IMG/VR virus record: IMGVR_UViG_3300021127_000003
Reading direction: 5' to 3' (one strand)
DNA from: an uncultured virus (IMG/VR IMGVR_UViG_3300021127_000003)
Taxonomy: Duplodnaviria; Heunggongvirae; Uroviricota; Caudoviricetes
Length of the DNA stretch: 64,000 bases
Shown: positions 16,542-61,961 of the stretch, piece after piece
Position numbering within the stretch: the first letter of the stretch is position 1
Layout: every line of letters starts with the position of its first letter
The notes under the pieces: generated by a model
The model's database searches: none
The model's input: the letters and a program-made list of their open reading frames with translations, nothing else
What the model was told of the DNA's origin: nothing
Made by a program: the position numbers and the translations under genes

Positions 16542-19500
16542 TTATATATTTTCTATCTCAACCACCCTATCTAACCCTGGAACAGTAAAGTTTATTTTAT
16601 CATTAAACCAGAAATTTGGATTATAATTCATTTTTTTCCAGTAAACATTTTCAAGTTCCGATGGTGTAAATAAATCTTGTATAGTATCTTGGTCAGCCTC
16701 TTTATATGGTATACCATTGATTAGCTTCAACTCATTTTTTAAATAATCCTTTTTATCTGAAGGGTTTTTTAATAGTAAACCAGCTCTAATATCTTCACTA
16801 AAGACAACTAAAAGCGGTTTGATTCTCTTGTTGAAAGCATCCAAATATTTTGCTACATTGTACTCACCTAACATATCTGGTTTATCTTCCAATTCTTTGC
16901 TATCTAACATATAACAATTTAATTTATTTATCGATGTTAGACCCACTGGTGATTTACCATAATGAGTTATATGATCTTCTATATCTTTTTCTGACCAACC
17001 TTTTTTTGTAACTTTTACTGTTTGAATATCGCCTTGAGTTAATTTTGTACCATTATTAACGTAATATAAAGTATCTCCAAGATTAATATTTAATTTATTG
17101 ATTATGGCTAATTCCATATGAGCTTGCTTTGGTAATGGTTTACCGTTCTTGTTAAGCCCACGATTTTTATAATCTTCTAAAGTTTTTTTAACTCTTGCTT
17201 TTGTTGCAATTTTTGAAAGTGGAATTTCTTTATTATATATTTTTTGAACGTAGGTATTGTAGTAGTTAACAAATTCAGAACCTTTTTCATTTAATAGTAA
17301 AACCAAGGCTTTATCCAAAAATTCTTCAATATAGGCTGGCATTTTTTTAGATTTGATACTATTACCAGTCAATTTTACTTTACCACTATCTTCAAGTAAG
17401 GCATAGTTTTTACGAGCAAGATTTATGGTTGACGGCCATGTACCATCCAAACTTAATGCCATTTCACCTTTCATGAATAAATCATTAAATTCAGCAATCA
17501 CTGCATCAACTCCTGTGTATTCTTTATCTTTAATTACAGCTTCATTATTACCCAGACCAATGTATCTAAAATTTTCCTCTCCAGATTCTGGTGCCATAAA
17601 GTTAACACCATCCGTATCAAGTACTAATGGTTCATAACCTTTAGCCATAAAAAATTTAACCATTATCCTTAAGTATTGTCTTGCTCTCGCAGTAATACCT
17701 TCAGCAACATCCATTTCAGCCCAGTTAAATGCTGTTGGTGCTCCAAGGGCACCGAACATTGAGTTGATGAATATTTTCAGAGGTAATTGTTTACGGTCAT
17801 AAAAACTTTTCATTTGTTTATCACCAGCTTTACCGTATTTCTTAGCGAGATTCTTTGCTTTAAAACGTTCAGAGTGAAAATATTTAAGTAAAGATTTCAT
17901 TACATGTGTTATATCACAAGATGGGAACACCTCATGTGCAAGCTGTATAGAAGGATAAAGAGATGAATAGTCCATCTTTCTTAATTTCTTAGAAAAACCA
18001 ACTTTAAACAGTCTTGATAATCCACCAACGAAATCTCGTTTTTCATCATTTATTGGAATTGCTAAATCATTTTCATAAGACCATGTTAACATCAACATTT
18101 TCCATAGTCCAGCAGTACCCATTGTAGATACTCTTTGATAACTTGTTGGTATTAATTTAGCCAACATAAATGATGATTGATTGTAAATATTATCAACTTC
18201 GAGTGTTTCCCAAAGGTCATCCATCAAGTATCTGTTAACAATATATTTACCATCACATTCTACAAAACTATCACAATAAACCTTTAATAAGTTTAAAGAA
18301 TTTTGTAAAAATTTGAAGGTTTTTGGAGCTTTTTCCTGTAATTTAGCTAAACCTGTACCAATACCAGAAGAAGGTATAACAATACATTTACCTTTCTTTA
18401 TTTCGTTAATTATAATTTTTAGGTCGAGATTTATTTTCTTTTTATTTAATTCAAACTCATCATCATTATAATAACAATCATCAGTTGTACCTGGCGCTTT
18501 TTTTGTGACAATACCAATAGAGTTTTTTTCGTTTCTCGTTTCTTTGGCCTGACCACCAAAACCTTCTCTTAGATCATTATCACCGAAAATAAATATTTTG
18601 TCTGGATTATCTTTAACAATCTGTCTCGTGATAAAATCCATATACTCAACTTTTGGTTTAATTTCAGAATATGAACCACTTTTATCATCAAAATAATATT
18701 TCTTGTCGCTTTTCCAATATTTTCCAATATTTTCACCAACGATGTATACACGATTTGATTTAGCAACATCATTATATTTACAAACATATTTCAATCTGGT
18801 AAATTTCATATCAGAATCAATAGCTTGTGCTCTTCTGGTTGAGTGGTTAATATCGATAATACTATATCCGAACATATTTGTTTGGATATATCTTTCAACC
18901 TCGTTACCAAGTTTTAGTATTTGTTCAGTAACGTATATTTGTTTATCTTTTTTCAGAGTCTTTGCGATATTTTCAATATCAATACCAAGAATTTGACATC
19001 TTTTGAATATGAAATACCAGTCAAAGTTTGCACTATTGTAACCACCAATGATAGTTGGTTTTATTGCATCGATTTCATTGAAGAATTGTATAATCCCATT
19101 TTTTTCAGATTCAGGGTCGTTTATGTCGATTTCAATCAATTTTTCATATCCTTTATTAGTTTTACAACCAATCAAAAATATTTTTTCTATATTTGGATCC
19201 AAGCCTGTTGTTTCCAAGTCAAAAATAAGTTTTGTCAACTCATTATAATCTTCAATACCTTTATATAAACGATTACCAGTACTGATAAAATACTGTTCAA
19301 TTGGGGATAATATTGTAAAATATTCCTTTAAATTAATTCTCTTTTCAAACTTGTTGTAGAAATTTATACCACCATCAGCAAAAAATGATAGCATTCTTTT
19401 GTGTCCTTGTTCACATGTAACTAAATATGTGTAACCATTCACTAATCTTGGGTGGTCATCGTGTCTTAGCTTTTTAATTTGGATGCCATACTCCTTCATT

Positions 19501-23495: not shown

Positions 23496-24599
23496 ATGAA
23501 AAAAGCTTTATCTCTTCAAGAGTCAATTGATAAAATCAAAAAAATATCTGGAATTCAGATAGATGAAATTGATTGGAAAAAGGATTTCAAGGATGTAAAG
23601 GCTACATGTATGCCTTTACCAGAAGTTGTTAATTATTTAAATCGTGTAATAGCTAACAGAGAATTAAGTACCGCAGATAGAGAAAAATTTAGTACAGGTA
23701 TGCCATTTGTACACGCAAAATCAAGATTGATTGGTACAGAATTTGAGGAAGTGGATATCCCAACATTTATTGAAAGAATGACTACACCACCTAATAATTT
23801 GGTGAATACCAACGATAAAATGTTAAAAAGTGGTGGTAGAAATGATTTTGTTTATAAAACTGGTTTACCAGCATTTAGAGGATTAGCTTATGATATTCAA
23901 AGTAAAAAGTTCTATATAATTAACACTTGTCCAGGCGCTGGTAAATGCAGGCAAGGTTGTTATGCATTATCTGGAAATTATATTCAATATCCAGCGTCAT
24001 ATGATAGTATGACAAGAAGATTAAATTATTTATTGAACTTTCCAAAAGAATATGAAGAAAGGTTATATATCGAATTAAAGGAAAAATGTGTTGAACATAA
24101 GGCTGTCAAAGGATATAAACATAGAGTTATGTTCAGATGGAATGATTCTGGTGATTTTTTTACTGAAAAATATGTAAAAATAGCAAATAACGTAATGAAT
24201 CGATTGAAATCTGAGGGTTACAATATTATTAGCGCCGCTCATACTAAAATTGCTGCTGTTACTAAAAACCCAGATTTCGATTCAACCAGTTTTTCTGCTG
24301 ACGCTAACAAAAAGGAATTAAGTAAAATCAATCCTGAAAAACAAAAAATTTCTGATAGATTACCTTATAGTCAATTCAGAGATTTAGATTTATCGAGATT
24401 AGATGATTTTGAAATCTTAAAGGAAAGAGTTGCCGAATACTATGGTATAACTAACATAGATAATATACTTTCTTATGACGAAATGATGAGTACAAAAGAT
24501 AAAGGTGTTCCAAAATATTATGTTATTATAACACCAGATGATGGTGACGATGCTGTTTATAGATCAGATGTTAAGAAAATAATACATACTGAACACTAA
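23496..24599 (+). CDS. Gp88-family protein (radical-SAM-like Cys cluster)
   Basis: TCPGAGKCRQGCYA (Cx5Cx3C) and FRWNDSGDFF signatures. Confidence 0.75.
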   Translation: MKKALSLQESIDKIKKISGIQIDEIDWKKDFKDVKATCMPLPEVVNYLNRVIANRELSTADREKFSTGMPFVHAKSRLIGTEFEEVDIPTFIERMTTPPNNLVNTNDKMLKSGGRNDFVYKTGLPAFRGLAYDIQSKKFYIINTCPGAGKCRQGCYALSGNYIQYPASYDSMTRRLNYLLNFPKEYEERLYIELKEKCVEHKAVKGYKHRVMFRWNDSGDFFTEKYVKIANNVMNRLKSEGYNIISAAHTKIAAVTKNPDFDSTSFSADANKKELSKINPEKQKISDRLPYSQFRDLDLSRLDDFEILKERVAEYYGITNIDNILSYDEMMSTKDKGVPKYYVIITPDDGDDAVYRSDVKKIIHTEH

Positions 24600-27490
24600 T
24601 CTTTTAAAGACTTTATAACATCAGAAATCATAGATGTATCATTGAAAATATCATTATTTTCATCTCCCATTACAGTACTAATATTTTTAATTTTCTCCTG
24701 TAGTTTGTTGTACATAACCGTATCTAAAGTACCATCTATTAAAGGATAAATTATGTGTACTTCATTCGTTTGTCCCATTCTATGTGCACGATCACCAGCT
24801 TGTAAGTGATTTGCTGGTGTCCAATCAACATCGTTGAATATCACCACAGAACCTTCAGTTAAAGTTAAACCAACACCTGCCGCAACAATGTTACCACAAA
24901 AAACTTTGATTTTATCATCGTTTTGAAACTTTTCAACGGCAATATCTCTATTTTTAGCGCTTACAGCACCATCAATTAAAACAGACTTTTTACCAAAATG
25001 GTCATGAATTGTTCTAATACTATTAGAAAAACATGAAAAAATAATAACTTTTCTACCACTTTCAATTATATCTTCTACAAGATTGATTGTTGTACTTAAT
25101 TTGTCTTCAGATAGTAATTGTCTAACCTTTATCAATTGTGTAAGATGTTCTGTTGGTTTAGGTTCAATCCCATTTTCTACTTGTTCATCATACCAATTTT
25201 GATATTCTTCCATATAATCCTGATATCTTCTTGAAGAGGATAATGGTAAATATATTGGTTTTATTGTCTTTTGTGGTAAATCAACAGCATCTTTTTTAAG
25301 CCTTCTAAGGATCAAATCGTCTGTAAATTCTTTTAATTCTTCAAGATTTGTTGCACCATCAGTTACCCAATATTTTTGTGTTGACCCTTTTCTTTTGAAT
25401 TGTCTACCAGCACAATAACGCCTAACATACCCAACCCAATTTGTACTAAGTGGGGATTCACAAAGATATAATAAATTATATAAATCAATTGGTTTATTAG
25501 TTATTGGTGTACCAGTTAGTAACCATCTGGTACCAATTTTCATCGCAAAATCATTAAATAATTTTGTTCTATTTGCGGTAGCATTTTTAAGGTAATGTGC
25601 TTCATCAGCTATAACTAAATCAAATTTATAAAAATCGATTATTGATTCTTTTACATCTTCTGGATCTTGACCTTTTTCTTTCAAATTATGGAAGTTTTTA
25701 AGGATATCATAGTTTACAATAGTCCATTTTTTGAATGTAAAATCAGAACCTTCTACAATACTAATATCGTTTGGGTTATCATACAAACTTATTTCTTTTT
25801 TCCAGTTCAATTTAAGAGATGCTGGGCAGACAACCAAAATCCTTTTATATCCACCAGTTATCGCAGCAAGAATGGTAGATGTTGTATTATGTGTTACAAT
25901 TGCGTGTTCTGTAACATATAATTTATCTGGACTATCTACTGATATACAAACAGCTTCACCAGTACCACAAGGTTGGATATCCTTAATATATCTACCAACT
26001 TTATATTTTTCAGGTTCTTTATATAATATAGCTTTACGTTTTAATCTAAAAGGATTAATACCTGTAGGCATCTTTATATTTAAACGATAACATTTTTTAC
26101 AAATAACCTTAGTTCCATCTGGCTTTCTATAGGAACCAATTTTACTTTTTTTACGCACAATACCACCCAAACTATGAACTATCTCAGCAATATCGTCAGC
26201 TAATTTTTCAGATACCGTAGCGTATTCCGTACCAGCAAACAAACCTTTTTTTGATTTCATGCAATGACCATCAGTATCCATCAAACCTTGCAAAATCGCA
26301 ATTCTATTAACTATTGAACTATATTTATATTTATCTGGTATAAATTTAGTATCTGAAGTTTTATTATTAATATTTAATAATTGTAATTTATTACCGAAGT
26401 TTAAATTACATGATCGTCTATTGCCAACAGGTGATAATTCATTAAATTCAACACCTGTAAATAATTCTTCAAAATCATCTTTATGTATCTCAAATTTTAC
26501 TGATGAATTTTTTATGTTACCATCACCCAAACAAACACCTAATAAATATGGTTCAATAGGTAATTCATAATTATTGTAAAATTCTATAGGTTTAACGATA
26601 GGTATCTGCCATTTAGATGCGCCATTATTTTTTTTATAGTATGTTGAGTATTTGTAGGGTCTTTTTTCATTCCAATCCGAACCATTTTGTTGTAAAATCA
26701 AATTTTTATCAAGCATTTGATTTGTACTTAATGTAATATATCTATTTTTTCTATTTTTATTATTTTCACCATTACAATTAGTTGAAACAGACCAAAGGTG
26801 TTCACCACCGACTAAAATAGAATAACCATCATTAAAGGTTACCTTAAATAATTCTTTATTACCTTGTGGAAAAACACCAACAACATTATATGGTTTACCA
26901 TCTGAACCAATAACTTTATCACCGACAATTATATCACCAATTCTTTTCCTACCAAATGGTGTAAACAATTGGTTATCAACAAATTCCATTTTACCCAAAC
27001 CCATATCATCAGCCAAGATAAATTTATCATTTTCCAATAAAGTTTTGATTGCTGTTAATTGGTGTTTTTTTGGCGGCCTATCATACTGATCAAAAGAAGG
27101 TAATTCAATAGTTTTACTATTTTTGATACAATTTTTATCCAAATAAACTGAAAAATAGTATTTACAATCTTGATTAAAACAAGCCCAAAGGTGAAGGTTA
27201 TCGACTTTTCGTGTTAATAATTTATTAATAAAAATTTCTTCAGGTATAAAATCTAATTTATATTGGCTTTTTAAAAAACCTCTAATACTTTTATGTAAAA
27301 CATATTTTTTATTCAAAACAATAGGTTTTACTTTCTGATTAGATATTATGTATTTACATATATTTGAAGTTAACGGAAACGCTTTTTTGCTTAATAAATA
27401 ACCTTTTATTTCCAGTAAATAATCATTGGATCCTTGGTAATTTATTAGAATTTCTTTAGCTTGTATTTCAATTGGTATATTATTCATCAA
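24596..27490 (-). CDS. SNF2/SWI2-family helicase containing an intein
   Basis: LADDMGLGK|T Walker A split by an intein, VCPASLKLNW, DEAH, LTGTP, AAGVGLTLT, QAGDRAHRMGQ. Confidence 0.93.
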   Translation of the reverse strand: MMNNIPIEIQAKEILINYQGSNDYLLEIKGYLLSKKAFPLTSNICKYIISNQKVKPIVLNKKYVLHKSIRGFLKSQYKLDFIPEEIFINKLLTRKVDNLHLWACFNQDCKYYFSVYLDKNCIKNSKTIELPSFDQYDRPPKKHQLTAIKTLLENDKFILADDMGLGKMEFVDNQLFTPFGRKRIGDIIVGDKVIGSDGKPYNVVGVFPQGNKELFKVTFNDGYSILVGGEHLWSVSTNCNGENNKNRKNRYITLSTNQMLDKNLILQQNGSDWNEKRPYKYSTYYKKNNGASKWQIPIVKPIEFYNNYELPIEPYLLGVCLGDGNIKNSSVKFEIHKDDFEELFTGVEFNELSPVGNRRSCNLNFGNKLQLLNINNKTSDTKFIPDKYKYSSIVNRIAILQGLMDTDGHCMKSKKGLFAGTEYATVSEKLADDIAEIVHSLGGIVRKKSKIGSYRKPDGTKVICKKCYRLNIKMPTGINPFRLKRKAILYKEPEKYKVGRYIKDIQPCGTGEAVCISVDSPDKLYVTEHAIVTHNTTSTILAAITGGYKRILVVCPASLKLNWKKEISLYDNPNDISIVEGSDFTFKKWTIVNYDILKNFHNLKEKGQDPEDVKESIIDFYKFDLVIADEAHYLKNATANRTKLFNDFAMKIGTRWLLTGTPITNKPIDLYNLLYLCESPLSTNWVGYVRRYCAGRQFKRKGSTQKYWVTDGATNLEELKEFTDDLILRRLKKDAVDLPQKTIKPIYLPLSSSRRYQDYMEEYQNWYDEQVENGIEPKPTEHLTQLIKVRQLLSEDKLSTTINLVEDIIESGRKVIIFSCFSNSIRTIHDHFGKKSVLIDGAVSAKNRDIAVEKFQNDDKIKVFCGNIVAAGVGLTLTEGSVVIFNDVDWTPANHLQAGDRAHRMGQTNEVHIIYPLIDGTLDTVMYNKLQEKIKNISTVMGDENNDIFNDTSMISDVIKSLKD
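25886..26989 (-). mobile_element. Class 3-type intein with LAGLIDADG endonuclease, 368 aa
   Basis: Starts Met after GLGK and ends VTHN before Thr+1; block B EHLW, block F AVCISV; LLGVCLGDG and LQGLMDTDG motifs. Confidence 0.9.
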
Positions 27491-28579: not shown

Positions 28580-29194
28580 TCAATTGGTTTTAAATACCCA
28601 TTTAAAACCACCAGCGGATTTAGATCTACCGTAACAACAATTATTAATACTTGTCCTTAATATATTAACATCTTTAGATGCTATTTTAGCAGATGGGTAT
28701 TCCTTAATAAACTCACCATTTAATTTATATTGTAATATTGGTTTGTAATATAGTTTATTAAATTTTTCTAATTCAATATCAGTTAGTTTTTTACCTTTAT
28801 TTACTGGTATACGTCCTTTCATAGATTTGGATATTTTATCTCTATGTTCAACAGTTATAATTCTACCTTTCTGAGCTTTAGACATTTTCTTTTTTATATC
28901 ATCAGTAACAATAAAATTAATTTTACCCTCACCACCATTTGTTAAATTAACTAAGGTACCACTATTTAAATCAATTCGACCATATAAAGTAATTAGCCTT
29001 TCTTCTTCCAAACAAGCATCAACCCAACTAATATTACTTTTCAAAATTAATACATTATAATCTACTTTATTTATAATATTTAACCAATGTTTATTTCTAT
29101 TAAACTTAGAATAAGCCCTTTTTTCGGTTTTACCTATACCAACATAAAAAACTTCATTATTATCTTTTCTTGTATGTATATAAACGCAACTCAT
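28580..29194 (-). CDS. Free-standing GIY-YIG homing endonuclease with NUMOD3/NUMOD1 DNA-binding motifs
   Basis: VYIH...FYVGIG...RAY...E..LI...NLTNGGEG; KKKMSKAQKG; ILQYKLNGEFIKEYPS...SAGGFKW. Confidence 0.88.
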   Translation of the reverse strand: MSCVYIHTRKDNNEVFYVGIGKTEKRAYSKFNRNKHWLNIINKVDYNVLILKSNISWVDACLEEERLITLYGRIDLNSGTLVNLTNGGEGKINFIVTDDIKKKMSKAQKGRIITVEHRDKISKSMKGRIPVNKGKKLTDIELEKFNKLYYKPILQYKLNGEFIKEYPSAKIASKDVNILRTSINNCCYGRSKSAGGFKWVFKTN

Positions 29195-34941: not shown

Positions 34942-35274
34942 ATGTCAAAAAAAATCATTTATTTGATTAGATCAGGTGATAAATACAAAATCGGTGTATC
35001 AACGACAAAAAATATTAACAACAGAGTAAAAAATTTACAGACTGGTAATAGTGAAAAAGTTGAAATATTGAAAGTATTTGAATCTGAATATGCTAATTTG
35101 ATTGAAAAAACACTTCATAGAGAATTTATAACAAAAAAATTAATTGGGGAATGGTTTGAACTTTCTATTGATGAAGTATTGACTTTCGAACAAAGATGTG
35201 TTACTATTACTAATAACATAGAATTATTAAAAAAAGAAAATAACTACTATATATTAAAAAGACTAAAAATATGA
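34942..35274 (+). CDS. GIY-YIG nuclease (T5orf172/MUG113-like)
   Basis: IYLI..YKIGVS..RVKNLQTGN...IEKTLH..F......GEWF. Confidence 0.88.
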   Translation: MSKKIIYLIRSGDKYKIGVSTTKNINNRVKNLQTGNSEKVEILKVFESEYANLIEKTLHREFITKKLIGEWFELSIDEVLTFEQRCVTITNNIELLKKENNYYILKRLKI

Positions 35275-38830: not shown

Positions 38831-41800
38831 ATGAGCAGTCAAACACCAGAAAGTTCACTTGGTTTAAAGAACACATCGCAACAATTTAGAGATAATATTC
38901 TAAAATTGAATTTAAAAACACCACCAGATATTGTTCTCGGTTTGGTTAGTACTGAAGGAATCGGAGCTTTACAAGCTTATGAATATTCTTTAGGTAGGGA
39001 TACTGTTATTGATAATTTCAGCGTAAAAAATCCAGGGGATATAACCAGTGAAGCTGATAAAGTTAGAAATAAAATTTTGAATAGAAATAGACCTCTAAAT
39101 AAAAGTGATTTTTCAGCTATAACTGAAGGAAACGATAGTTTAGGTTATACGTACCAAGCTTTGGCCGATGGTATTGGTAAACTTGCTGTGATTAGTGACT
39201 ATTCAATACCAACATTACAATCTGTTTCAAGTTTATATGATTTATCTTCAGATTATTCATTAAAACTAAATGCTAATTTAAATAAATATATTCCACAAAC
39301 ATTTGATGTATTTAATACAAATACATTAAAACCTAATGCACCACAAACACCGTATGTTGACGATAATGGTCAATTAAGTAGAGATTATTATGTTACGCAA
39401 TATACACCACAAGATATCCTTGGAATAAATGTAAATAAAAACTCTGCTATTGATTTCACAATTGACCCTGTAAGTTATATAAATTATTCTGGTAAGGTTC
39501 TTCAAAACGAAACGTTATTGATGAATATTGCTGCATTAGAATTAAAATCTGCTTTCGAAACAAGAATACAACAAAATATACTTTCAGATTCTCCATTAAC
39601 AAATATTAATGATGCGTTAGCTGACCCAGCACAAGCAATTAATATATTAAAAGACCCATCAAATAATCTTATTGCTAAAAACTATAATATAACAGTTCCA
39701 AATAATCCAATCGGATATGCAGCATTATTTACAAGTTCGTTAGTTGGAGCCACAGATATTATAACGTATTTGAATTTAAAAAGTAAACCTACACTTACAC
39801 CAGGATGTTTTAATACTTCAGATCAAAGTGTTACAACAACAGATAAATCAGCTTTAGGTAAATTGCTTAATGATGCTTTTGGTATGTCCAAACAAGGATA
39901 TGATAATTCTGAAGATGTAGCATTTTTGAGTAATACTGGTAGTGGGCAAAAATTCCAATTATTTTCAAACATTTATTTCAATAAATATGCACCCAATTAT
40001 GACCCACAATACCAAAGTGGTATTTTCCAAGCGATAGATAAAACATTGCAAGCTATCGGTGGTGTTACAGGTTTCCTTGGTATGACTGGCGGTAAAAAAC
40101 CGCAATCAAGATATTATTTTGGAGATATTAAATCAGCACCATTTTTTGCTTTACAAGATTCTGAGGGTGATCAAGTTAAGAGTCCTGAAGAAATTACAAA
40201 AATTATATCAACAAACTATCTTGATGGAACCACATATTATGAACCAGGGTTGAATGAAACGGCAAAATATGGTTCATTAAATACTGATTTTATATGGCAC
40301 AAAACAGATTATCAAGAAACATTTTATGATCCTCAAACAGTATCATCTGATTCTAAGGGTAATATAAATTACGATACGGTAAGTAAAATTGACAGTAACA
40401 ATAACGATGCTGAAAGAATTCTTTCGAAAGCTGGTAGTGATAATTATTATGACCGTTTCAGAGAATGCTCGATATTATTTAAAACACAAAGACTTCTTGA
40501 AAAGGCAGATGATAATAGTAATCCAATAAATTTGGTGATAGACCAAACAAAAACTAAATTGTTTGATGGTTATAGTCTATACTCTAAAGGTAGTGGTGTT
40601 TTAGCTACTGCAAAAACACAAAGAAAGGATGATGCTGGTAATGTAATAGGTAATAATTATTCTGTACCTGGATTATATAATGGTACCAGAGATGATGTTA
40701 ATAATATGCGAGACAATGCAGAATTTTGTAGAACTTGGACTAAAGTAAGACCTTATTCTGGTACGTTAAATTTGATGAGATTTACGGAATTATTAAGACT
40801 TGAAAGAAATTCTGTTTTGGATAGATATAACAATTATAGTATTTTCCCATCAGAAACGAACATAAATTATACAAAATCAGATAAATCAGCTGGAAATGCT
40901 AAAAAATATATGTTCTCAATTGAGAATCTTGCTTGGAGGGGACAAAATAAATGGAAAGGGGATTATGACCTCAAACCATTTGAAGTTGGGCCTAACGGTG
41001 GTAGAATAATGTGGTTTCCACCATACGATATTAAATTCACAGATGATACATCTGTGAATTGGACTTCACATCAATTTTTAGGAAGACCAGAACCAATATA
41101 TACATATAATAATACTGAAAGACAAGGTACCCTTTCATTCAAAATTGTTGTTGACCATCCATCAATACTAAATATATTAACTCAAAAAGAATTAAAGAAT
41201 TATCCAGACACTGTAGTGGATGAGATACTTGATTCATTCTGGGCTGGTTGCACGAATTTTGATATATTTGAATTAGCAAGAATCTGGGGTGTTTTTAGTA
41301 ATAAAGATATTGCATATTTTGAAAGAGTAATTGGTGAAATTCAAACAACAAAAGCTAATGCTGATATCAAATCAAAACTTGATCAAAGTGATGCTAAAGA
41401 ACCCACAGCACAAGTAACTCAGGATACAACTACGCCACCAATTATTCCAACTATCCAAGCTGATTTATTTTTCGAAAATCAAACACCATTGGATACTGAG
41501 GATGCTAATGTTAATACATACGATACATATTTTGATACTTATTATAAACTATCTATTGCTGACCCATCTGTTCAATCTGCTGAATCTAAAAAAGGTAAAT
41601 CATATGCTTATTTCGTAAAATATGATCAGGTTATAGGTTCTAATAGTGAAGACGGATATTTTAGCCAATTACCGAAAGGTTCTGCACCATATTATCAACT
41701 ATATCAAAGTTTTACAAATTTTAGAGATCAAATAACAAGTTATGCAAACAACAGAGGTAATAATATAACAATTACTGTTGATTCATTCACAAGTGCTCTG

Positions 41801-44800
41801 GATAGTCAAGATGTTGATTTCAATACAAAACTTGGTATCAGAAAATTTAAAAGTGTTATAAAATGGTTAGCATTTAACATTTTTAAAGATTTGACTGTTG
41901 AAACTACCAACGATGTTTTAACACCAGATAATATTGAAAAATACTTGACTGGTACAAAAGTAAGTTTTGTTAGACCTTCTAATGGTGAGAATAAGAAAGA
42001 TAAGGTGATATTTGTTTTAAATTCGCCAACACAAATAAGTGCGATAGATTCCATGAAAGCTGTTAGTACACCTGAAAATGTATTGACTGCTTCATTTACT
42101 ACAATACCTATGGTAAGGATACCATATGGTAAAGCTCCAAATACAGTTACATATTATTGTACTGACACAGAAGATAATAGAAAACTTTTATTAACAGCTA
42201 TAAATTTTTTCGGTGGTAATATAACTACTGCTGAGGGTAAAACATATAGTAATGTTACAAGTGATCTTGTTGGTTGTTTGCAACCTAAAATACAATCATA
42301 CAGTCAAGCTGATATAGTTTGTTCTGTTTTGTCAATACAAGCTTCGTATTCAAGAAAGGTTAACCTAAAAGTATCATTGGAAGTTAATCCAGATCCACCA
42401 AAAACTGAAACAAAAACTAATGCAAATCCAACGCAGGTATCAAGCCAACAACCGACAAACGCCACAAATATAACTAAAAGAGAAATAGCGCAAAGAATTC
42501 TTAATAGGTTAATCACTGAGGCGGATTATTTTGAATATTTACAAGCGAATACCCCAACTGTATATAATTCGGTGAAAGAAAAATTGAAATATTTTACACC
42601 AGCATTTCACTCTATGACTCCAGAAGGGTTGAACTCACGTTTAACTTTTTTACAACAGTGTCTTAGACCTGGTGATACAATATTAAATTCACAGAATGAA
42701 TCATGTGACGCAACAAATACAGTTTTTGGTAAACCACCTGTTTGCGTATTAAGAATTGGCGATTTCTATAACACAAAAATTTTGATAAATTCTTGTAATA
42801 TATCATATGAACCTTTGGTTTTTGATTTAAATCCAGAAGGTATAGGTGTACAACCAATGATCGCTAACGTCAGTTTAAGTTTTAAATATATTGGTGGATC
42901 AGGTTTAAGAACACCTATAAATGAATTACAAAATGCATTATCATTCAATTATTATGCAAATGCTGATGTATATGATTCAAGAACTTCCGCTAATATTGAT
43001 CCAGTAGAAAGACAATTAGTAAATCAAGAAACATCATTTTTTGATAATAATACTCTCGATTTAATACCGATTGTACAAAAAGCTAAAGAATACCAAATAC
43101 CAGATTCTACATACGATGTTCCAAAAGGCACCATTGGTGTTCCAGATACAACAACAAAAGATTTGATAGATTTGTCTGGTAATAATTATTCATTGGCTAA
43201 GAGTGTTGGTATTATTTATGATATTTCTATTGTATTTCAACCATATGCATTTTCTTACGACCCAACGGAAAATCCAGGTATTTATGGACAAAATTATTAT
43301 CAAAGACTATTCGATGATAAAGTTAATAATAATGCACAATTAAACGTTGCTGGTAAACCATTAATTTATACCACAGCATGGACTTTATTGACTAACACAA
43401 ATTTTGGTGAAGCGAGTTATATATCAGAATATGGTCAGAACGCATCAATTGAAATATTTAATGTTAATTATAAAAAACTATTCACTAACTTTTATGATTC
43501 GTTTATAACTAATGTTTTGAATTATTCTGATTCATTAGTATTTGATTCATCAAATCAATCATCATTTTTATTATCAAAAATATTGAATATAAATTATACT
43601 GGAGCGACAGATAATGATGATAAAACATTCATGGACAATATAATTAAAAATATTGTTACTGGTGGAACAACGGATACAACAACTGTTAATAGTTTTTTTG
43701 GTTCTAAAGCAAAATATAGTAACTATGTTAATGTAAAAGATTATTGTGATTATAGCCAGTTTGGTGGTTCAAGTTTTAATAATCTTTATGGAACTCAATT
43801 ACATTTATACCCTCAGATGCTGTATTATACAACACCAAGATTTAACCCAACAGCAAAAATATCTTCAGTATTTACTGGACAATCATATAATCCAGGATAT
43901 ATGACGGATGGTGAATACGATTCTTCAGATGTAGCAGGTTTGTATTTGAAAAAACCAACAAATTATGATTACACAAAAGCTTTGATCACACATTTTAATA
44001 TAGATATAACAAATAAATTGTATAATGATTTACTTGTATATTGGTTTATAGACACTGGTTTATTTGATAGATATAATAAGGAATTGAATTCTAAAGATTT
44101 AAAAATAATCTTTCAAAATTACATTTCAACACAACTTAGTAATTATACAAATAATTTATTATTAACCAAACAACAAAAAAATATTGATCAAACAAACAAT
44201 ATATATTCATTTAACACCTATCTTTCAGGAATTAATGCTGTGTTGTCAGGGTATGATGGTACAACAACAAATAGTAAAGTTAATCAATTATATGAGATTA
44301 TTAGAAACGAAAATAAAATAAAAACACCTGTATCACAATTGTTTGGTTATGATCCTTTTTCTCAATATTTAACAATATATAATTACACTGGAACATCATC
44401 TAACAGTATTATAGATTTGAGCCGTGTTTATAATTATAAATCGGACGATAATACTAAATTTATGTTAGGTAATGGTTACTACTATTTTAGACAAATTTCA
44501 AATGATAATACGTTTATTGATTCACCATTGTTATTGAATAACACAAATTTCAAAACTATAGATGCAAATATGGTTTTACCAAAAAATGATGATATTGATA
44601 ATAATATTACTACTACAGGTGATATAACGAATTATGAATTAAAAAGTTTTGATCTTTCAATTACCACACCTCAAATCCAATTTGACCAACAAACTAATGT
44701 GGTAGATTACCAATTTCAAGGGTTGATACCTTCATTAAAAAATGTTAATAGTCAAGGAACATATTTACAAAACAAATACCAGTTGACTTATGTTTTTGAA

Positions 44801-56224: not shown

Positions 56225-57136
56225 ATGTTAGACTACAAAAATTTAGACTGGGGCAAAGCCACCGAAGACGTAACAACAGATTATGCAAAAGCAAAGGACA
56301 ATTCAAACTTTTCACAAAGTAAAAAAGTTGATTTAACACAGTACCTTTCATTAAGTTTACCAGAAGGTGTAAACGAAGGAGAAGTGATTGTTAGGATTCT
56401 ACCTAACCAAGATGATCCGTACAAATTCTACGAAAAGAAAAGATTCAACAACATTAAAGTTGGGAAAAATTATGTAAAACTCTATGATCCTGCTCAGGAT
56501 GGAGAAGAATCACCACTTAACGATGCCTATCAGTTCTTGAGAGGCGGTGACAAAATCGACCAAGAAAATGCAAAAAAATATAGAGCTTCTGATTATTACA
56601 TCGTTAGATGTATCTTAAGAGGAAAAGAAGCTGAGGGTGTTAAATTCTGGAGATTTGCACACGTTAGTAACGGTACAGGTGTAATGGACAAATTACAAGC
56701 AATCATCAAAAGACAAGAAGCAAAAGGTCGTGGCGCTGGCGCTATATGGAACCCTATTGCTGGTCGTGATATCTATATCAGTCTTGTAAAAGACACATCT
56801 AAAGGTAAAGGAAAAGAATTTACCAAAATCGCTTCAATCATGGTTGAAGAAACATCACCACTTTCTACAGATGAAAACCAAATGAATACTTGGTTGAATG
56901 ATTCTAAAACATGGAAAGATGTTTATTCTAAGAAATCTGTTGAATATTTGAGAATTGTTGCACAAGGTTCAGTACCTGTATGGAGTTCAGAACTTAAAAA
57001 GTTTGTTGCGCAATCAGATGATGAAAGCCTTCCAACACCAACACAAACTACTAACTACCCAACATCCGCACCTACTGCGAATAACAACGTTGATGTTGAA
57101 GACGAGGTAATGAATATTGACGATTTACCTTTCTAA
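56225..57136 (+). CDS. Single-stranded DNA-binding protein (T4 gp32-like)
   Basis: VRILP, GVKFWRF, P..GRDI; acidic tail ending DDLPF; upstream of recombinase. Confidence 0.8.
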   Translation: MLDYKNLDWGKATEDVTTDYAKAKDNSNFSQSKKVDLTQYLSLSLPEGVNEGEVIVRILPNQDDPYKFYEKKRFNNIKVGKNYVKLYDPAQDGEESPLNDAYQFLRGGDKIDQENAKKYRASDYYIVRCILRGKEAEGVKFWRFAHVSNGTGVMDKLQAIIKRQEAKGRGAGAIWNPIAGRDIYISLVKDTSKGKGKEFTKIASIMVEETSPLSTDENQMNTWLNDSKTWKDVYSKKSVEYLRIVAQGSVPVWSSELKKFVAQSDDESLPTPTQTTNYPTSAPTANNNVDVEDEVMNIDDLPF

Positions 57137-57153
57137 GTAAATAATAACATACC

Positions 57154-57182
57154 AAAACCCCCAAGCAATTTGGGGGTTTTTT
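57154..57182 (+). terminator. Intrinsic terminator
   Basis: AAAACCCCCAA-GCAAT-TTGGGGGTTTT hairpin followed by more Ts. Confidence 0.85.
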
Positions 57183-57210
57183 AAACTAATACAAATTATA
57201 AAAAATTGTT

Positions 57211-58272
57211 ATGGCTAAAGGCATTAAAAAAACTGAATACTCACTTGATGATTTAAAGAAAGAACTTGGTGTGAGTACAACTAAATATAAACCAGATTTA
57301 TTTCTTGAATGTGGTGAAGCATTCTTAGAAGCAACAGGTCTCCCAGGCCCTGCAATGGGACACATTAACATGTTTATAGGGCATTCAAATGCTGGTAAGA
57401 CAAGTGCACTTATTGCTTCAGCGGTGGATGCGCAAAAGAAAGGTATCATGCCTGTGTTTCTTATAACTGAAAAGAAATGGTCATGGGAACATGCTAAATT
57501 GATGGGTTTCCAGGTTGATTGGGATGAAGAAAAACAAGATTGGATTGGTGACTTTCTTTATTTCGATGAACTTGATTGGATAGAATTAGTTACTGAAAAA
57601 ATTAATAAAGTTCTTGATGCACAAGAATCAGGTAAATTAAAAAGAGATGTTTGTTTCTTTTGGGATTCTGTCGGTTCAGTACCATGTAAAATGACTTATG
57701 AAGGTAAAGGTGGTAAACAACATACCGCTGGTGTTCTTGCTGAGAAAATCAATATGGGTATAAACCAAAGAATCAATAAAACAAGAAAAGAAAATTCACC
57801 TTATCTTGCTGGGTTAGTTGTATGTAATTTACCTTGGGTACAAATTCCATTGGTTTATGGTGCACAACCTAAGATGAAACCAAAAGGTGGTGAAGCATTA
57901 TACCAATCATCTACACTTGTTTTCCGCTTTGGTAATGAAGCTGAATCTGGTATTTCAAAGATTGATGCAACTAAAAACGGTAGAACTATTAACATAGCTG
58001 TTAGAAGTAAAATCACTGTAGATAAAAATCACATCACTGGTCTTGGATATAAAGATTCAAACATTATAATTACACCACAAGGTTTCCTAAAAAGTGACAG
58101 ACGTGGTAGTAAAGAAAATAATGAGGGTAAAGAAGCAATCGCAAAATATAAATTAGAACATATGAATTATATCGCATCTCAATTTGCAAAAATGGGTGAG
58201 GTAATTGATAATGTTGATGATTTAGAAATTATTGAAACAGAAGATAGAGGAACAATTGATTATGAAGATTAA
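57211..58272 (+). CDS. RecA/UvsX-like recombinase
   Basis: GHSNAGKT Walker A, FLITE, FFWDSVGS Walker B, KPKGGEA, KNH. Confidence 0.88.
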   Translation: MAKGIKKTEYSLDDLKKELGVSTTKYKPDLFLECGEAFLEATGLPGPAMGHINMFIGHSNAGKTSALIASAVDAQKKGIMPVFLITEKKWSWEHAKLMGFQVDWDEEKQDWIGDFLYFDELDWIELVTEKINKVLDAQESGKLKRDVCFFWDSVGSVPCKMTYEGKGGKQHTAGVLAEKINMGINQRINKTRKENSPYLAGLVVCNLPWVQIPLVYGAQPKMKPKGGEALYQSSTLVFRFGNEAESGISKIDATKNGRTINIAVRSKITVDKNHITGLGYKDSNIIITPQGFLKSDRRGSKENNEGKEAIAKYKLEHMNYIASQFAKMGEVIDNVDDLEIIETEDRGTIDYED

Positions 58273-59287
58273 GAAACCTAAGGTTAACAGTTTGTTGATT
58301 GATGGTGAGAATTTGCTAAAGATTGGATTTCATGGCACCAAAAATACCCAAACAGAAAATGGTAGTGTTGGTGCCATTTTTCATTTTATAAACACCATAA
58401 AAAGATTTTATTCCGAATATGGGATAACAAAGGTTGTGGTGTTTTGGGAAGGTGAAAACTCAAAAAAATATCGTCAAGGATATTATCCATATTACAAACA
58501 AAATCGAAACTCACAATATACTGAAGAACAAATTTATGATCTTGGTAGACAACGTATTCGAATTAAACAATACCTTGAGGAGTTATATATTCGCCAAGTT
58601 GAAGTTGCTGAATGTGAAGCTGATGACGGTATTGCTTATTACTGTAAAAATTCACCAAACGAAATCAAATTAATATTGAGTTCGGATAAAGATTTATTAC
58701 AATTAATATCTGAAGATGTTAAAATATATCTTTTGAATAAAAAGGTTGTGATAACAGATAAAAATTTTCATACTTATTTTGATTATCATCAAGGTAATGT
58801 TGGATTAATAAAAATGATTGCTGGTGATAGCAGTGATAATATTTCTGGTTTACAAAACATTGGTGAAGAAAAAACGTTGAAATTATTTCCAGAATTGAGA
58901 AAAGAAAAAAAAGATTCTGATTGGATAATTGAACGTACAAATGAATTGTTAAGTGAAAAACCTGACAATAATATGTTGAAAACAATTGTTGAAGGTAAAA
59001 CAAAATGGGGTACATATGGTAACGATTACTTTGCTGTAATGAACAAGATTATTAATCTTGAATCGCCGAATGTAACTGAAGAGTTAATGGAAACAATAAG
59101 TGTTATGGTTAATGAGCCAATGGATCCAGAAGGTAGAGGTGGGATTAATTCAGTAATGAAAATGATAAAAGAAGATGGAATTATAAATTATATTCCAAGT
59201 TATGACGATGAATATTTTGTTTTTTGGAGTACGTTCATAACTATAATCAAAAAAGAACAAAATTATTTTAAAACTAAAAAAATCTAA
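58262..59287 (+). CDS. 5'-3' exonuclease/flap endonuclease (T4 RNase H / Pol I N-terminal type)
   Basis: LLIDG, YKQNR, EADDGIA, SSDKDLLQL, GDSSDNISG...IGEEK; start placed at ATG 58262. Confidence 0.92.
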   Translation: MKIKKPKVNSLLIDGENLLKIGFHGTKNTQTENGSVGAIFHFINTIKRFYSEYGITKVVVFWEGENSKKYRQGYYPYYKQNRNSQYTEEQIYDLGRQRIRIKQYLEELYIRQVEVAECEADDGIAYYCKNSPNEIKLILSSDKDLLQLISEDVKIYLLNKKVVITDKNFHTYFDYHQGNVGLIKMIAGDSSDNISGLQNIGEEKTLKLFPELRKEKKDSDWIIERTNELLSEKPDNNMLKTIVEGKTKWGTYGNDYFAVMNKIINLESPNVTEELMETISVMVNEPMDPEGRGGINSVMKMIKEDGIINYIPSYDDEYFVFWSTFITIIKKEQNYFKTKKI

Positions 59288-59334
59288 CTTTTAATCTTTT
59301 ACTGGTCATCTTATATTTATAATAAATTATAAAT

Positions 59335-60039
59335 ATGAAACAAAAAATATATCTTTATATTAAAACAAGTCCAAAAGGTTTAAAATATTTGGGAAAAACC
59401 ATAAAAGACCCCTTCAAATATATAGGTAGTGGTTTAGTTTGGCTAAATCATATAAAAAAACACAAAATAAAAACAAAAGATATTATAACTGAAATTTTAT
59501 TTGTGGGTTATAATAATGATGAGATAAAAGAGAAAGGTACTTATTACAGTCAATTATATAATATTGTTGAATCAGAAGAGTGGGCAAACCTAAAAATTGA
59601 AAATGGTGATGGTGGTTGGAGTGGATGGCATAATGAAGATACAAAAAAAAAGATGTCTGAGGCAAGAAAAGGTAAGATTGTTTCTGACGATATTAAAAAA
59701 AGAATGTCTGATGGTCAGTTAGGTAAAAAACACTCTGAAGATACGAAAAAAAAGATGTCTGAATCTAAAAAAAAGATGTCGGATGAAACTAAAGAAAAAA
59801 TTAGATTTTCCGCTTTGAACAGAAGTGAAGAATATAAAAAAAAGATGTCAGATATTAAAAAAGGTACTATCATAACTGAAGATGTTAAATTAAAAATTTC
59901 TCAAAGTAATATTGGAAAAAAAAGGAGTGAAGGTACTAAAAGAAAAATGTCTGAATCTAAAAAAAATATGTCTGAAGAGACTAAGAAAAAAATGTCTTTG
60001 AAAGCTAAAGAAAGATGGGCAAAAAATAAAAACAAATAA
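59335..60039 (+). CDS. Free-standing GIY-YIG homing endonuclease with multiple NUMOD3 repeats
   Basis: YLYIK...KYLGKT...YIGSG..W...NL..E.GDGG, then repeated (H)SEDTKKKMSE motifs. Confidence 0.88.
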   Translation: MKQKIYLYIKTSPKGLKYLGKTIKDPFKYIGSGLVWLNHIKKHKIKTKDIITEILFVGYNNDEIKEKGTYYSQLYNIVESEEWANLKIENGDGGWSGWHNEDTKKKMSEARKGKIVSDDIKKRMSDGQLGKKHSEDTKKKMSESKKKMSDETKEKIRFSALNRSEEYKKKMSDIKKGTIITEDVKLKISQSNIGKKRSEGTKRKMSESKKNMSEETKKKMSLKAKERWAKNKNK

Positions 60040-60040
60040 T

Positions 60041-60071
60041 TTTGTTTTTTGGTCAACTTTTATTACTATTA
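60041..60071 (+). promoter_or_regulatory. Bacteroidota-type early promoter
   Basis: TTTG-N19-TACTATTA upstream of 60117 and the helicase. Confidence 0.55.
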
Positions 60072-60116
60072 TAAAGAAGGAACAAAATTACTTCAAAACT
60101 AAAAAAATATAAGATT

Positions 60117-60563
60117 ATGGAAGAAAGAAAAGAGCGTAATTTTGAGTTTACGTTGAAACTCAACGAACATATTATTGTTCAAAGATTGTTTAATGTTTTC
60201 GGTTTTAATAATAAAGCTGTGAACAGTTTAGATTTTAAATATGTTATTGACGATAACATAAGACTAATTCAGGAATCCCTTAAAAATAAGACTCTTGATT
60301 TTATGAATGAAAACAGAAACAATTACACTAACAACCCATCATTTGAACAAAATGAACATAGTGATATGTTTGTTTTTACAATAAAAATGAATGGTAAAGA
60401 AATTGCTCACCGTGAATTTGATGCACGAATATATCCAGCTACTGTAAGATATAGTGTAGACATCAGAGAGCATATCTATAAAATAATCACAAGTGTACAA
60501 CGAGTGTTATGTTCTAAAACAGAAAATCTTGAATTGAATTATTTAGAATATAAACTTGGTTAA
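60117..60563 (+). CDS. Hypothetical phage protein
   Basis: 148-aa ORF directly upstream of the helicase. Confidence 0.75.
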   Translation: MEERKERNFEFTLKLNEHIIVQRLFNVFGFNNKAVNSLDFKYVIDDNIRLIQESLKNKTLDFMNENRNNYTNNPSFEQNEHSDMFVFTIKMNGKEIAHREFDARIYPATVRYSVDIREHIYKIITSVQRVLCSKTENLELNYLEYKLG

Positions 60564-60566
60564 TTT

Positions 60567-61961
60567 ATGGTTGAAAAGATATCAAATTTAAGTGATCTTG
60601 GTCCTGAATATCAATTACAATTATTTAATGAAATAATAACAGACCACAAATTTGGTTTATCAATTATTGATATTATTGATAAACAATATTTTCAAAATGA
60701 GGCCTTTTCAAAGATAGCCCACATTATTAAGGAATATTACAAAGAACATAATTGCCTTTTAAATTTCCCTGCGTTGAGAACGGAAGTCAATATGAATATT
60801 CCGATGAACGCAGAAACATTTAAACAACAACTTTTAGATACCATTGATAACATACAAAAATGTAAAATCAATAATCTAAATGTACAAGATACAGCGCAAA
60901 GATTCTGTAAAATGCAATCTTTGAAAAATGCTGTAAACAGTATCAAAAGCAAACTTGATAAAGGTATTCTACAAGATATTGATAATATCGAGGAAACATT
61001 GAAGAAAGCTTTAACTTTCAGACAAGTAGATGAACCTATCGATCTTGAATTTGAAATAGATAATGTTTTATCTGATGATTATAGAGAACCTATTCCAACT
61101 GGTATCACTGGAATAGATAACATTACAAATGGTGGTTTAGCAAGGGGTGAATTAGCACTTATAATAGCGCCACTTGGAGTAGGTAAGACAACAATGCTTA
61201 CCAAAATAGCTAATACTGCCTATAGATCAGGTAGGAATGTATTACAAATATTTTTTGAGGATAGTCCTAAAGATGTTCAGAGAAAACATTACTCTTGTTC
61301 TACAGAAATTCCGTTACCTGAATTATCTTTGCGTAAAGATGAGGTTAAAAAGAAAATCAAGATTATCAATAATCAAGAAGGTATTGGTAAATTATATATA
61401 CTTAAATTGTCCGCAGATGGTTGTACCGTTGGTGTAATTAAGAATACAATCAAAAGAATCAATTCTAAAGGCGATAAAATAGATGTATTAATTCTTGATT
61501 ATCTTGATTGTTTATCAGCAGAAAAAGAATTTGCTGGAGCAGAAGATTGGTCTAATGAAGGTAAAATTATGCGCCAAGTAGAATCAATGACAGCAGAATT
61601 AAACATTGCCAGTTGGGTAGCTACACAAGGTAATAGATCATCCACAAGTGTTGAGGTTGTAAAAACCGAAAATATGGGTGGAAACTTGAAAAAAGCACAA
61701 ATTGCTCACCTTATTGTAAGTGTTGGTAAAACTTTGGAACAGAAAGAAAATGGTAGAGCGACTATAACCATATTGAAAAATCGTATGGGTTCTGATGGAA
61801 TGATTTTCCAAAACTGCCTTTTTGACAATAAACGTATGCTTATTGATACCGAAGATGTCATATCTATACATGGTTTCGAGGATAAAGATAAGCAAAATCG
61901 TCAGAAAAGCTTGAACGAAAATTTAAGATCTAAATGGGAAAAAAATGGCGCAACCCAGTAA
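60567..61961 (+). CDS. Replicative DNA helicase (DnaB/T4 gp41-like)
   Basis: IPTGI..ID....GGL..GEL, APLGVGKT, FFED, ILDYLD, WVATQGNR, KNRMG. Confidence 0.93.
   Translation: MVEKISNLSDLGPEYQLQLFNEIITDHKFGLSIIDIIDKQYFQNEAFSKIAHIIKEYYKEHNCLLNFPALRTEVNMNIPMNAETFKQQLLDTIDNIQKCKINNLNVQDTAQRFCKMQSLKNAVNSIKSKLDKGILQDIDNIEETLKKALTFRQVDEPIDLEFEIDNVLSDDYREPIPTGITGIDNITNGGLARGELALIIAPLGVGKTTMLTKIANTAYRSGRNVLQIFFEDSPKDVQRKHYSCSTEIPLPELSLRKDEVKKKIKIINNQEGIGKLYILKLSADGCTVGVIKNTIKRINSKGDKIDVLILDYLDCLSAEKEFAGAEDWSNEGKIMRQVESMTAELNIASWVATQGNRSSTSVEVVKTENMGGNLKKAQIAHLIVSVGKTLEQKENGRATITILKNRMGSDGMIFQNCLFDNKRMLIDTEDVISIHGFEDKDKQNRQKSLNENLRSKWEKNGATQ

Follow-up and report, generated by a model that had tools for sequence, protein, structure and literature searches.

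The family-B DNA polymerase (PolB) of an uncultured Caudoviricetes virus (IMG/VR record IMGVR_UViG_3300021127_000003) carries a discrete module of 120 amino acids (aa) within its proofreading exonuclease domain, and this module is a full-length member of the family DUF7831 (Pfam PF25176). The stretch analysed, in the following called the window, comprises 64,000 nucleotides of this record and has a G+C content of ~29%; the whole record has 190,177 bases and an estimated completeness of 64%. It is possible, though short of probable, that the insert is an eraser of adenosine diphosphate (ADP)-ribosyl groups from DNA, which would act on the replisome in the manner of DarG or TARG1 and would counter a DarT-type defence.

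DUF7831 inside the exonuclease domain

The insert was matched to PF25176 over profile positions 5-117 of 118 (E 1.3e-42; 144.8 bits, cut-off 27) and to phrog_2072, a family of no assigned function. Pfam families other than DUF7831 were not matched by the insert. When the polymerase was aligned with its relatives, five insert-free enzymes showed a single clean gap exactly over the segment and both flanks were conserved. A first-pass annotation, made from the letters alone, had described a discrete in-frame module of ~120 aa between ExoII and ExoIII. This description holds, as the segment corresponds to polymerase residues 370-489, contains DUF7831 at full length and coincides with the gap in the insert-free relatives. 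That intein splice residues are missing, which had been noted as well, was confirmed at both junctions (KVEY/MDF and LLKVY/CDS), where no His-Asn end is found. An intein was rejected as an explanation of the segment, since no Hint or intein family was matched in the protein and the residues at both junctions are unlike those of an intein.

Invariant positions of DUF7831 were taken from an alignment of 36 sequences, which includes the insert of the window and all members of which (36/36) match PF25176. Eleven residues are invariant in the family (G20, N22, G27, G30, R36, N40, G43, K47, D60, G95 and P106; insert numbering), and all 11 are kept in the copy of the window. A profile alignment to the Pfu polymerase placed the insertion point approximately between Pfu residues 231 and 299, just ahead of the ExoIII helix. 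The full-length AlphaFold2 (AF2) model of PolB had a mean predicted local distance difference test value (pLDDT) of 89.2, with 87-94 for the blocks of the insert, and the secondary structure of the insert was the same as in a model of the isolated domain. In the AF2 model, the insert is closely packed, with short linkers to strand 367-370 and strand 496-499, and the latter strand runs into the ExoIII helix (500-530) directly after the insert.

The 1068-aa protein was recognized as a PolB by Pfam (DNA_pol_B, E 1.9e-12; DNA_pol_B_exo1, E 1e-7; RNase_H_2 was matched too) and by PHROGs (phrog_262, 'DNA polymerase', E 1.5e-46). In a profile search, archaeal family-B polymerases were its closest solved relatives (Pfu, 2jgu, E 1e-30). 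It gave the sole PolB match of the 190-kb record, and no match to PolA was found across this record. The residues expected of a proofreading PolB, i.e., D177/E179, D243, Y507/D511, D593/Y598 and D711/D713, are all present. The invariance of the residues in the exonuclease and polymerase motifs (Table 1) refers to a 58-sequence polymerase alignment. Because genes of a T4-type replisome share the window (56225..61961), PolB was read as a replicative enzyme, presumably that of a T4-like jumbo myophage. The window also codes for tail sheath, tube and baseplate proteins, PhoH and a dUTPase.

Table 1. Positions of the PolB gene, its motifs, the DUF7831 insert and further replication genes in the window.
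Feature	Positions	Strand	Basis or remark
Family-B DNA polymerase gene, 1068 aa	16545..19748	(-)	stop codon 16542-16544
ExoI FDLETTG, residues 176-182 (D177, E179)	19203..19223	(-)	sequence; D177, E179, T180 invariant
ExoII GYNSANFDW, residues 236-244, upstream of insert	19017..19043	(-)	sequence; F242, D243, W244 invariant
DUF7831 insert, 120 aa, polymerase residues 370-489	18282..18641	(-)	stop-free in-frame translation
Gly-rich loop 1 FGDNDLREGFGGQA, insert residues 19-32	18546..18587	(-)	G20, N22, G27, G30 invariant
Thr-Lys closing second strand, insert T46-K47	18501..18506	(-)	K47 invariant
Gly-rich loop 2 PSSGIGTGLAKL, insert residues 90-101	18339..18374	(-)	G95 invariant
ExoIII YLMDD, residues 507-511, 18 residues past insert	18216..18230	(-)	sequence; Y507, D510, D511 invariant
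Polymerase motif A DYSSLYPS, residues 593-600	17949..17972	(-)	D593, S596, L597, Y598, P599 invariant
Polymerase motif C DTDG, residues 711-714	17607..17618	(-)	D711, T712, D713, G714 invariant
gp32-like single-stranded-DNA-binding protein	56225-57136	(+)	Pfam gp32, E 4.8e-16
5'-3' exonuclease	58232-59287	(+)	Pfam 5_3_exonuc_N, E 4.6e-28
DnaB-like helicase	60567-61961	(+)	Pfam DnaB_C, E 2.7e-17

Comparison of the insert with macrodomains

The isolated insert was modelled using the 36-sequence alignment, which gave a pLDDT of 96.4 and a predicted template modelling score (pTM) of 0.88. DSSP assigned three strands (residues 15-22, 41-47 and 86-88) with helices on both sides. An exhaustive structural scan of 48,161 chains was performed using VIA-align. 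The ten highest scores were obtained for 2afc_A, an unnamed protein of Bacteroides thetaiotaomicron (6.7), Poa1p (6.2), an alphavirus non-structural protein (nsP) fragment (6.0), TARG1/C6orf130 (5.8) and the macro domains of PARP14 (5.5), DarG (5.5), PARP9 (5.3), Oceanobacillus (5.2), GDAP2 (5.2) and rubella (5.1), in this order. In these rows, 98-104 of the 120 residues were aligned at 3.3-4.2 Å. The word 'macro' occurs in the titles of seven of the ten rows and of at least 13 among the best 50, which also contain coronavirus ADRP/X domains, Af1521, DarTG and PARG. Poa1p, the alphavirus segment and 2afc were assumed by us to be of macro type. No function is assigned to 2afc_A (Q8A8B0, a structural-genomics entry) or to the cluster 'A1S_2505 family phage non-structural protein', and the DUF7831 profile had no match in the B. 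thetaiotaomicron control genome.

For comparison at the profile level, 35 relatives of phiKZ gp104 were used. This protein is AdfM, a macrodomain which removes DarT2 marks (PMC13309987). In hhalign, DUF7831 was aligned to the AdfM-type profile at loop 2, where a helix plus 'IVIPxxGIGTGLAxL' was placed onto a helix plus 'IAIPPLGCGxGGL' (score 26.1, P 0.0018, probability 14.6%). Reversed controls scored 20.5 and 20.1, and 50 block shuffles scored 16.9 +/- 2.4, the best of them 25.1, i.e., 0/50 reached 26.1. A permissive threshold gave a collinear extension of low confidence, in which 'FvFGDN..G.GGQA' was placed on 'VNtVN.VGVMGAGLA' and N22 onto N23 of AdfM. Alignment of the C-terminal two-thirds placed 'GIxTK' on 'FPTK' and K47 onto K78 of AdfM (P 0.001, probability 21%). 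In a figure legend of PMC13309987, N22/K80 of DarG and N23/K78 of AdfM are given as putative active-site residues, and mutation of the conserved Asn is stated to reduce activity (PMC13309987).

Several results weigh against placing the insert among the macrodomains. Its model has three strands compared to six or seven in the mixed sheet of a macrodomain, a three-layer alpha/beta/alpha fold; therefore, the adenine-holding parts of known macrodomains may be missing. The structural scores are modest, the sheet is reduced, and a Foldseek search of the insert model against the PDB gave no match at E ≤ 0.001. Pfam Macro (PF01661) was matched neither by the insert at E ≤ 1 nor by any of the 36 DUF7831 members at E ≤ 10, and Macro_2 (PF14519, a 290-position model) had no match here. 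No PDB sequence match was obtained for the insert with phmmer or with the profile; the best hits, AKAP18 and triosephosphate isomerase at E of about 0.1, were treated as chance. NCBIfam and PADLOC did not match the insert, and the lone NCBIfam hit of one DUF7831 member to 'ADP-ribose-binding protein' (E 0.086) is at noise level. The hhalign probabilities are low throughout (9.6-21%). When the N-terminal halves were compared alone, hhalign chose another register (P 0.074) and the loop 1 match was not recovered. With the single sequence of phiKZ gp104, the probability was 0.5%.

The term 'macrodomain-like' of the first-pass annotation can be kept only for the fold and for the motif position at loop 2, whereas the number of strands, the Foldseek search and Pfam Macro do not support it. 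The modelled insert would at best be a reduced macro-like fold. Judged from the alignments, DUF7831 may correspond to a macro-like core which lacks the outer strands and, on the way from loop 1 to the Thr-Lys strand, ~30 residues.

Related polymerases and the wider DUF7831 family

The polymerase sample consisted of the query and its 120 best relatives (n=121). The PF25176 label was precomputed in 73 of the 120 relatives, three carry an unlabelled segment at this place and 44 (~929 aa) have none. Classified by the two Gly-rich motifs, 59 of the 121 enzymes have an intact insert, 18 a degenerate one and 44 are insert-free; thus, 77 are insert-bearing. Trees were calculated using FastTree (LG+gamma) on 882 or 733 non-insert columns without dropping any rows. 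The 44 insert-free enzymes formed one clade (support 1.0), and P0077, an insert-bearing polymerase on a long branch, was its sister (support 0.98-1.0). The placement of P0077 was the same under midpoint rooting and under rooting by three distant phage polymerases. At face value, the tree indicates one gain and then one precise loss; a misplaced P0077 together with a single gain is equally possible.

Degenerate inserts were nested among intact ones at a minimum of six places in the tree. A six-member group replaced G20, G30, A32 and G97, and others among the degenerate inserts lost nearly all motifs or shrank to 94-112 aa. The members of the six-member group (P0039, P0040, P0045, P0048, P0049 and P0051; ~1033 aa) retain a full-length insert with FVYSDN, GYGEQS and GIGTDSS at the motif positions, A32 being near-invariant in the family, and by these replacements the subclade looks like a naturally inactivated series. 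As a separate observation, the DUF7831 insert of P0058 (PolB, 1392 aa) is decayed, and other parts of this protein hold intein and LAGLIDADG domains.

Among the 59 intact enzymes, the mean pairwise identity was 58% for the insert, 61% for the exonuclease domain and 53% for the termini. Among the 18 degenerate ones, it was 45% for the insert compared to 69-73% for the neighbouring regions. The ratio of non-synonymous to synonymous substitutions (dN/dS) was computed for 76 usable pairs of 153, most of which are saturated (dS > 1), such that only few close pairs are informative. For the closest intact pair, dN/dS was 0.07 in the insert and 0.05 in the rest of the gene; for a degenerate pair, the values were 0.56 and 0.08. 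Purifying selection thus acts on inserts with intact motifs, whereas inserts without them decay in place. Therefore, the insert is regarded as a conditionally useful accessory activity and not as an essential part of the polymerase.

A library-wide phmmer search for DUF7831 yielded 2016 representative clusters at E ≤ 1e-3 and 1302 at E ≤ 1e-10; the 150 hits listed are 39-60% identical to the insert. The best hit (P0123, 300 aa) contains two tandem DUF7831 copies (Pfam E 9.8e-69). Standalone members have 127-160 aa, whereas the largest protein with the domain has 6835 aa. Because the domain occurs both standalone and in many large proteins, an autonomous function is argued for. DUF7831 was found in cultured phages of Caulobacter, Rhizobium, Sinorhizobium, Ruegeria, Rhodobacter, Bradyrhizobium and Microcystis, where it is annotated as hypothetical, in giant viruses (Tupanvirus, Hyperionvirus, Yasminevirus and mimivirus) and in giant proteins of crAss-like phages. 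The standalone genes of phages phiM9, Seuss and Mwe-JY26 are neighboured by runs of hypothetical genes.

Fusion partners were determined by Pfam scans of 71 fused DUF7831 proteins (25 + 46). Recognized partners were SLOG domains of the cpYpsA or DprA type (7/71), DUF488-N3a (5/71), NADAR (4/71), superfamily 1 (SF1) Pif1/RecD-like helicases (4/71), Glutaredoxin (2/71) and, in one protein each (1/71), DUF4326, an N4-type virion RNA polymerase, MuF + Zeta + UvrB-interaction and a RanBP zinc ribbon. In the remaining fused proteins, no partner was recognized.

Prokaryotic genomes were scanned with the single pattern GGQAKEMR, which gave 25 loci; since no other pattern was used, these bacterial loci are a biased sample. 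In metagenome-assembled genomes (MAGs) of Acidobacteriota, DUF7831 opens an open reading frame (ORF) of ≥ 1450 aa with the order DUF7831-DUF488, with or without a preceding YpsA-SLOG, which is present in the ORFs of L107 and L111. A MobA/MobL-type relaxase gene (~830 aa) lies directly upstream of the DUF7831 ORF in both loci scanned for it (L094:1129-8332 and L105:1286-8314), and L095, L097, L099, L101, L106 and L109 have the same layout as judged by ORF size and order alone. The relaxase and the DUF7831/DUF488-N3a protein form a conserved pair; the latter is probably of the polyvalent type and encoded by a conjugative or mobilisable element. Elements of the relaxase type enter cells as single-stranded DNA. 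At another locus (L096:3977-4369), in a MAG of a Hellea sp., DUF7831 is encoded by a standalone gene between DUF1244 and an HslV-like proteasome-type gene, adjoined by a gene with a Lon substrate-binding domain; this context looks chromosomal rather than mobile.

Apart from the insert, no DUF7831 copy was found in its own record, which also applies to 4/4 related insert-bearing records, and canonical Macro and NADAR were found neither in its own record nor in these four. In 13 insert-free records of the sister clade, free DUF7831, Macro or NADAR genes which might substitute for the insert were searched; the outcome (0/13) is neutral with respect to substitution. Two of these records are G007 (290,710 bases, 97% complete according to CheckV) and G009 (317,210 bases, 100%), and both are devoid of DUF7831, Macro and NADAR.

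Other regions of the window had further features. In the N-terminal half of a 964-aa SNF2-type helicase (gene at 24596-27490, minus strand), Hom_end_hint and LAGLIDADG_3 were matched; this gene probably holds an intein with a homing endonuclease. Between 2121 and 13547 (minus strand), at least five glycosyltransferase genes (GT2, GT25, Glyco_tranf_2_5), a gene for NeuB, a synthase of the sialic-acid type (E 5.5e-63), and a CMP-sugar cytidylyltransferase gene form a run which looks like a phage pathway for nonulosonic-acid sugars, with DNA, virion or host surface as possible targets. Two giant ORFs lie beside the tail genes on the plus strand: one of 2301 aa (38831-45736) had no Pfam match, and one of 1991 aa (48768-54743) had only a tail-lysozyme domain near its end. 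Three free-standing genes of the homing-endonuclease type (NUMOD1/NUMOD3, GIY-YIG T5orf172) are located among the replication and tail genes at 28580-29194 (minus), 34942-35274 (plus) and 59335-60039 (plus).

Proposed activity and alternative explanations

The attachment of ADP-ribose to DNA by DarT toxins is an established means of defence against phages. As published, these toxins act on single-stranded DNA, whereby replication is blocked, and phage NADAR and macro enzymes are proven factors against DarT1 and DarT2 (PMC11825919, PMC13309987). In the reading preferred here, the insert would be related to the macrodomains of the TARG1/DarG branch but reduced to three strands, and would have kept the two Gly-rich phosphate/ribose loops and an Asn-Lys pair. 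In a clade of T4-like jumbo phages, DUF7831 would have entered the 3'-5' exonuclease domain at a surface loop immediately ahead of the ExoIII helix; the polymerase and exonuclease motifs have remained intact. The module would move along with the replisome, bind ADP-ribose on the bases of the single-stranded template, i.e., the product of a DarT-type toxin, and hydrolyse it, whereupon the fork would avoid a stall.

A role against DarTG, which the first-pass annotation had suggested, fits the company of DUF7831, namely NADAR, SLOG, DUF488, SF1 helicases and relaxase-adjacent giant proteins, and it also fits the anti-DarT enzymes of phages published in PMC11825919 and PMC13309987. Since DUF7831 recurs on polymerases, on helicases and in relaxase-adjacent proteins, a substrate borne by nucleic acid is suggested. 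Other observations speak for caution. The insertion, its family, its conservation, its resemblance in fold and its company in other proteins are shown, whereas ADP-ribose as ligand, DNA as its carrier, catalysis and the defence targeted are all inferred. In the sister clade, DUF7831, Macro and NADAR were each found in 0/13 insert-free records, two of them 97-100% complete. DarT (PF14487) was matched in 0/19 DUF7831-bearing bacterial genomes, a weak result, as 0/14 controls were matched too; moreover, genetic pairing with DarT would be expected of DarG antitoxins only and not of orphan factors of phages. Because 18 of the 77 insert-bearing polymerases lost conserved motif residues, the activity appears dispensable in many lineages.

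Instead of a mark on DNA, the ligand of DUF7831 might be soluble. The domain would then sense or process a derivative of nicotinamide adenine dinucleotide (NAD+) or of ADP-ribose, for which ADP-ribose-1''-phosphate, O-acyl-ADP-ribose and the cyclic ADP-ribose signals of TIR-type defences are candidates, and the polymerase would be a mere carrier or would be tuned allosterically. This is considered unlikely, since DUF7831 sits repeatedly on enzymes which track along nucleic acids (PolB, four SF1 helicases, the virion RNA polymerase) and beside relaxases, and since the best alignments, although of low confidence, indicate a DarG-type Asn/Lys pair. Similarly improbable is a repair module directed, by removal or recognition, at an adduct or end structure of DNA or RNA other than ADP-ribose, e.g., a SLOG/LOG-like Rossmannoid whose likeness to macrodomains reflects a shared alpha/beta arrangement. 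In the VIA-align scan, macrodomains ranked above every Rossmann-like family, the profile signal falls on macro loop 2 and invariant residues fall on the Asn and Lys of DarG/AdfM. Furthermore, the most specific partner, NADAR, is an ADP-ribosyl-DNA glycohydrolase (PMC11825919).

The tight packing, short linkers and high pLDDT in the full-length model would also suit an insert whose present role is mainly structural, either as a docking surface of the replisome or as a stabilising subdomain. The 18 polymerases with lost motif residues retain a segment of 94-121 aa in place, and precise deletion occurred at most once in the outgroup-rooted tree, which agrees with such a role. Nevertheless, it was judged very unlikely: the protein of the window keeps every family-invariant residue, the 59 intact inserts are conserved like the exonuclease domain, and the decayed copies are relaxed (45% versus 69-73% identity; dN/dS up to 0.56), which is the pattern of a lost activity rather than that of an element with a structural role alone.

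Removal of ADP-ribose from template DNA, the reading preferred here, has known counterparts. The known answers of phages to DarTG are the free-standing AdfA, AdfN and AdfM or point mutations of the polymerase (PMC13309987); one phage evades DarTG2 by such mutations, presumably by read-through (PMC13309987). AdfM (phiKZ gp104) and the DarG2 macrodomains are ADP-ribosyl-thymidine glycohydrolases (PMC13309987, PDB 5M3E/5M3I). In contrast to these, the insert has no detectable membership in their sequence family, has ~120 aa and three strands instead of ~155 aa and a full sheet, is ~30 residues shorter between loop 1 and Thr-Lys and is embedded in a polymerase instead of free-standing. AdfN and phage NADAR proteins are ADP-ribosyl-guanine glycohydrolases which counter DarTG1 (PMC11825919). 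They are orphan antitoxin-like enzymes of counter-defence, as is proposed for the insert; their fold is unrelated, and NADAR was found neither in the insert's own record nor in 17 related records. The fusion of NADAR with DUF7831 in 4/71 proteins suggests a shared pathway with complementary specificity.

Polyvalent proteins, which belong to phages and conjugative elements (Iyer et al. 2017, cited in PMC9503650), offer a further comparison, because DUF7831 recurs in such giants beside SLOG, NADAR, DUF488 and DUF4326; examples are the virion RNA polymerase, the MuF-Zeta protein and the relaxase-adjacent proteins of at least 1450 aa. This company is the combination which Iyer et al. describe for 'Macro' domains (PMC9503650), and the company of SLOG, Macro, NADAR and DUF4326 is described for viral NAD+/ADP-ribose systems (PMC9503650, PMC7824862). 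Unlike in polyvalent proteins, the module of the window is nested in the catalytic core of a replicative polymerase and not in an injected effector chain.

Archaeal family-B polymerases inspect the single-stranded template for a damaged base by a 'read-ahead' uracil pocket. These enzymes are the closest solved relatives of the PolB studied here, and in both cases a replicative PolB would inspect its template. The pocket is a part of the ancestral N-terminal domain and is limited to sensing, whereas the insert is foreign to the exonuclease domain, and removal of the adduct is proposed for it.

No paper on DUF7831 was found in the literature search. In the abstracts and text passages searched, no DNA polymerase with a macro-type or DUF7831 domain was described; Figure 5 or the supplement of PMC9503650 might list one. 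The statement of the first-pass annotation that no described PolB of this architecture is known therefore stands for this literature, and it has to be qualified in that the architecture is abundant in public metagenomic phage contigs (73/120 relatives). Phage ADP-ribose erasers, polyvalent arrays of such domains and DUF7831 as a catalogued family are already known.

The work indicates a possible function for DUF7831, a family of ~2000 representative clusters. As a more tentative and rather doubtful extension, DUF7831 may constitute a third, unrecognised class of ADP-ribosyl-nucleic-acid glycohydrolases, i.e., a macrodomain of minimal size whose Asn/Lys site resembles that of DarG. In this clade, the domain would have become part of the replicative polymerase, so that the replisome would erase DarT-type marks from its own template. 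Homologues in cultured phages (Caulobacter, Rhizobium, Sinorhizobium, Ruegeria, Microcystis) and in giant viruses make this testable in the laboratory, and the intact, decayed and absent states of the insert in 121 polymerases are a natural experiment on gain and loss of a counter-defence module. If the proposal is true, no polymerase before this one would have carried an eraser for a DNA modification inflicted by a defence system, and the routes of the free-standing eraser and of polymerase mutation would be joined in one protein. The class would be spread over phages, giant viruses and conjugative elements, and the repeated decay of the site in place would be a record of lineages freed from the pressure of DarT-type defence.

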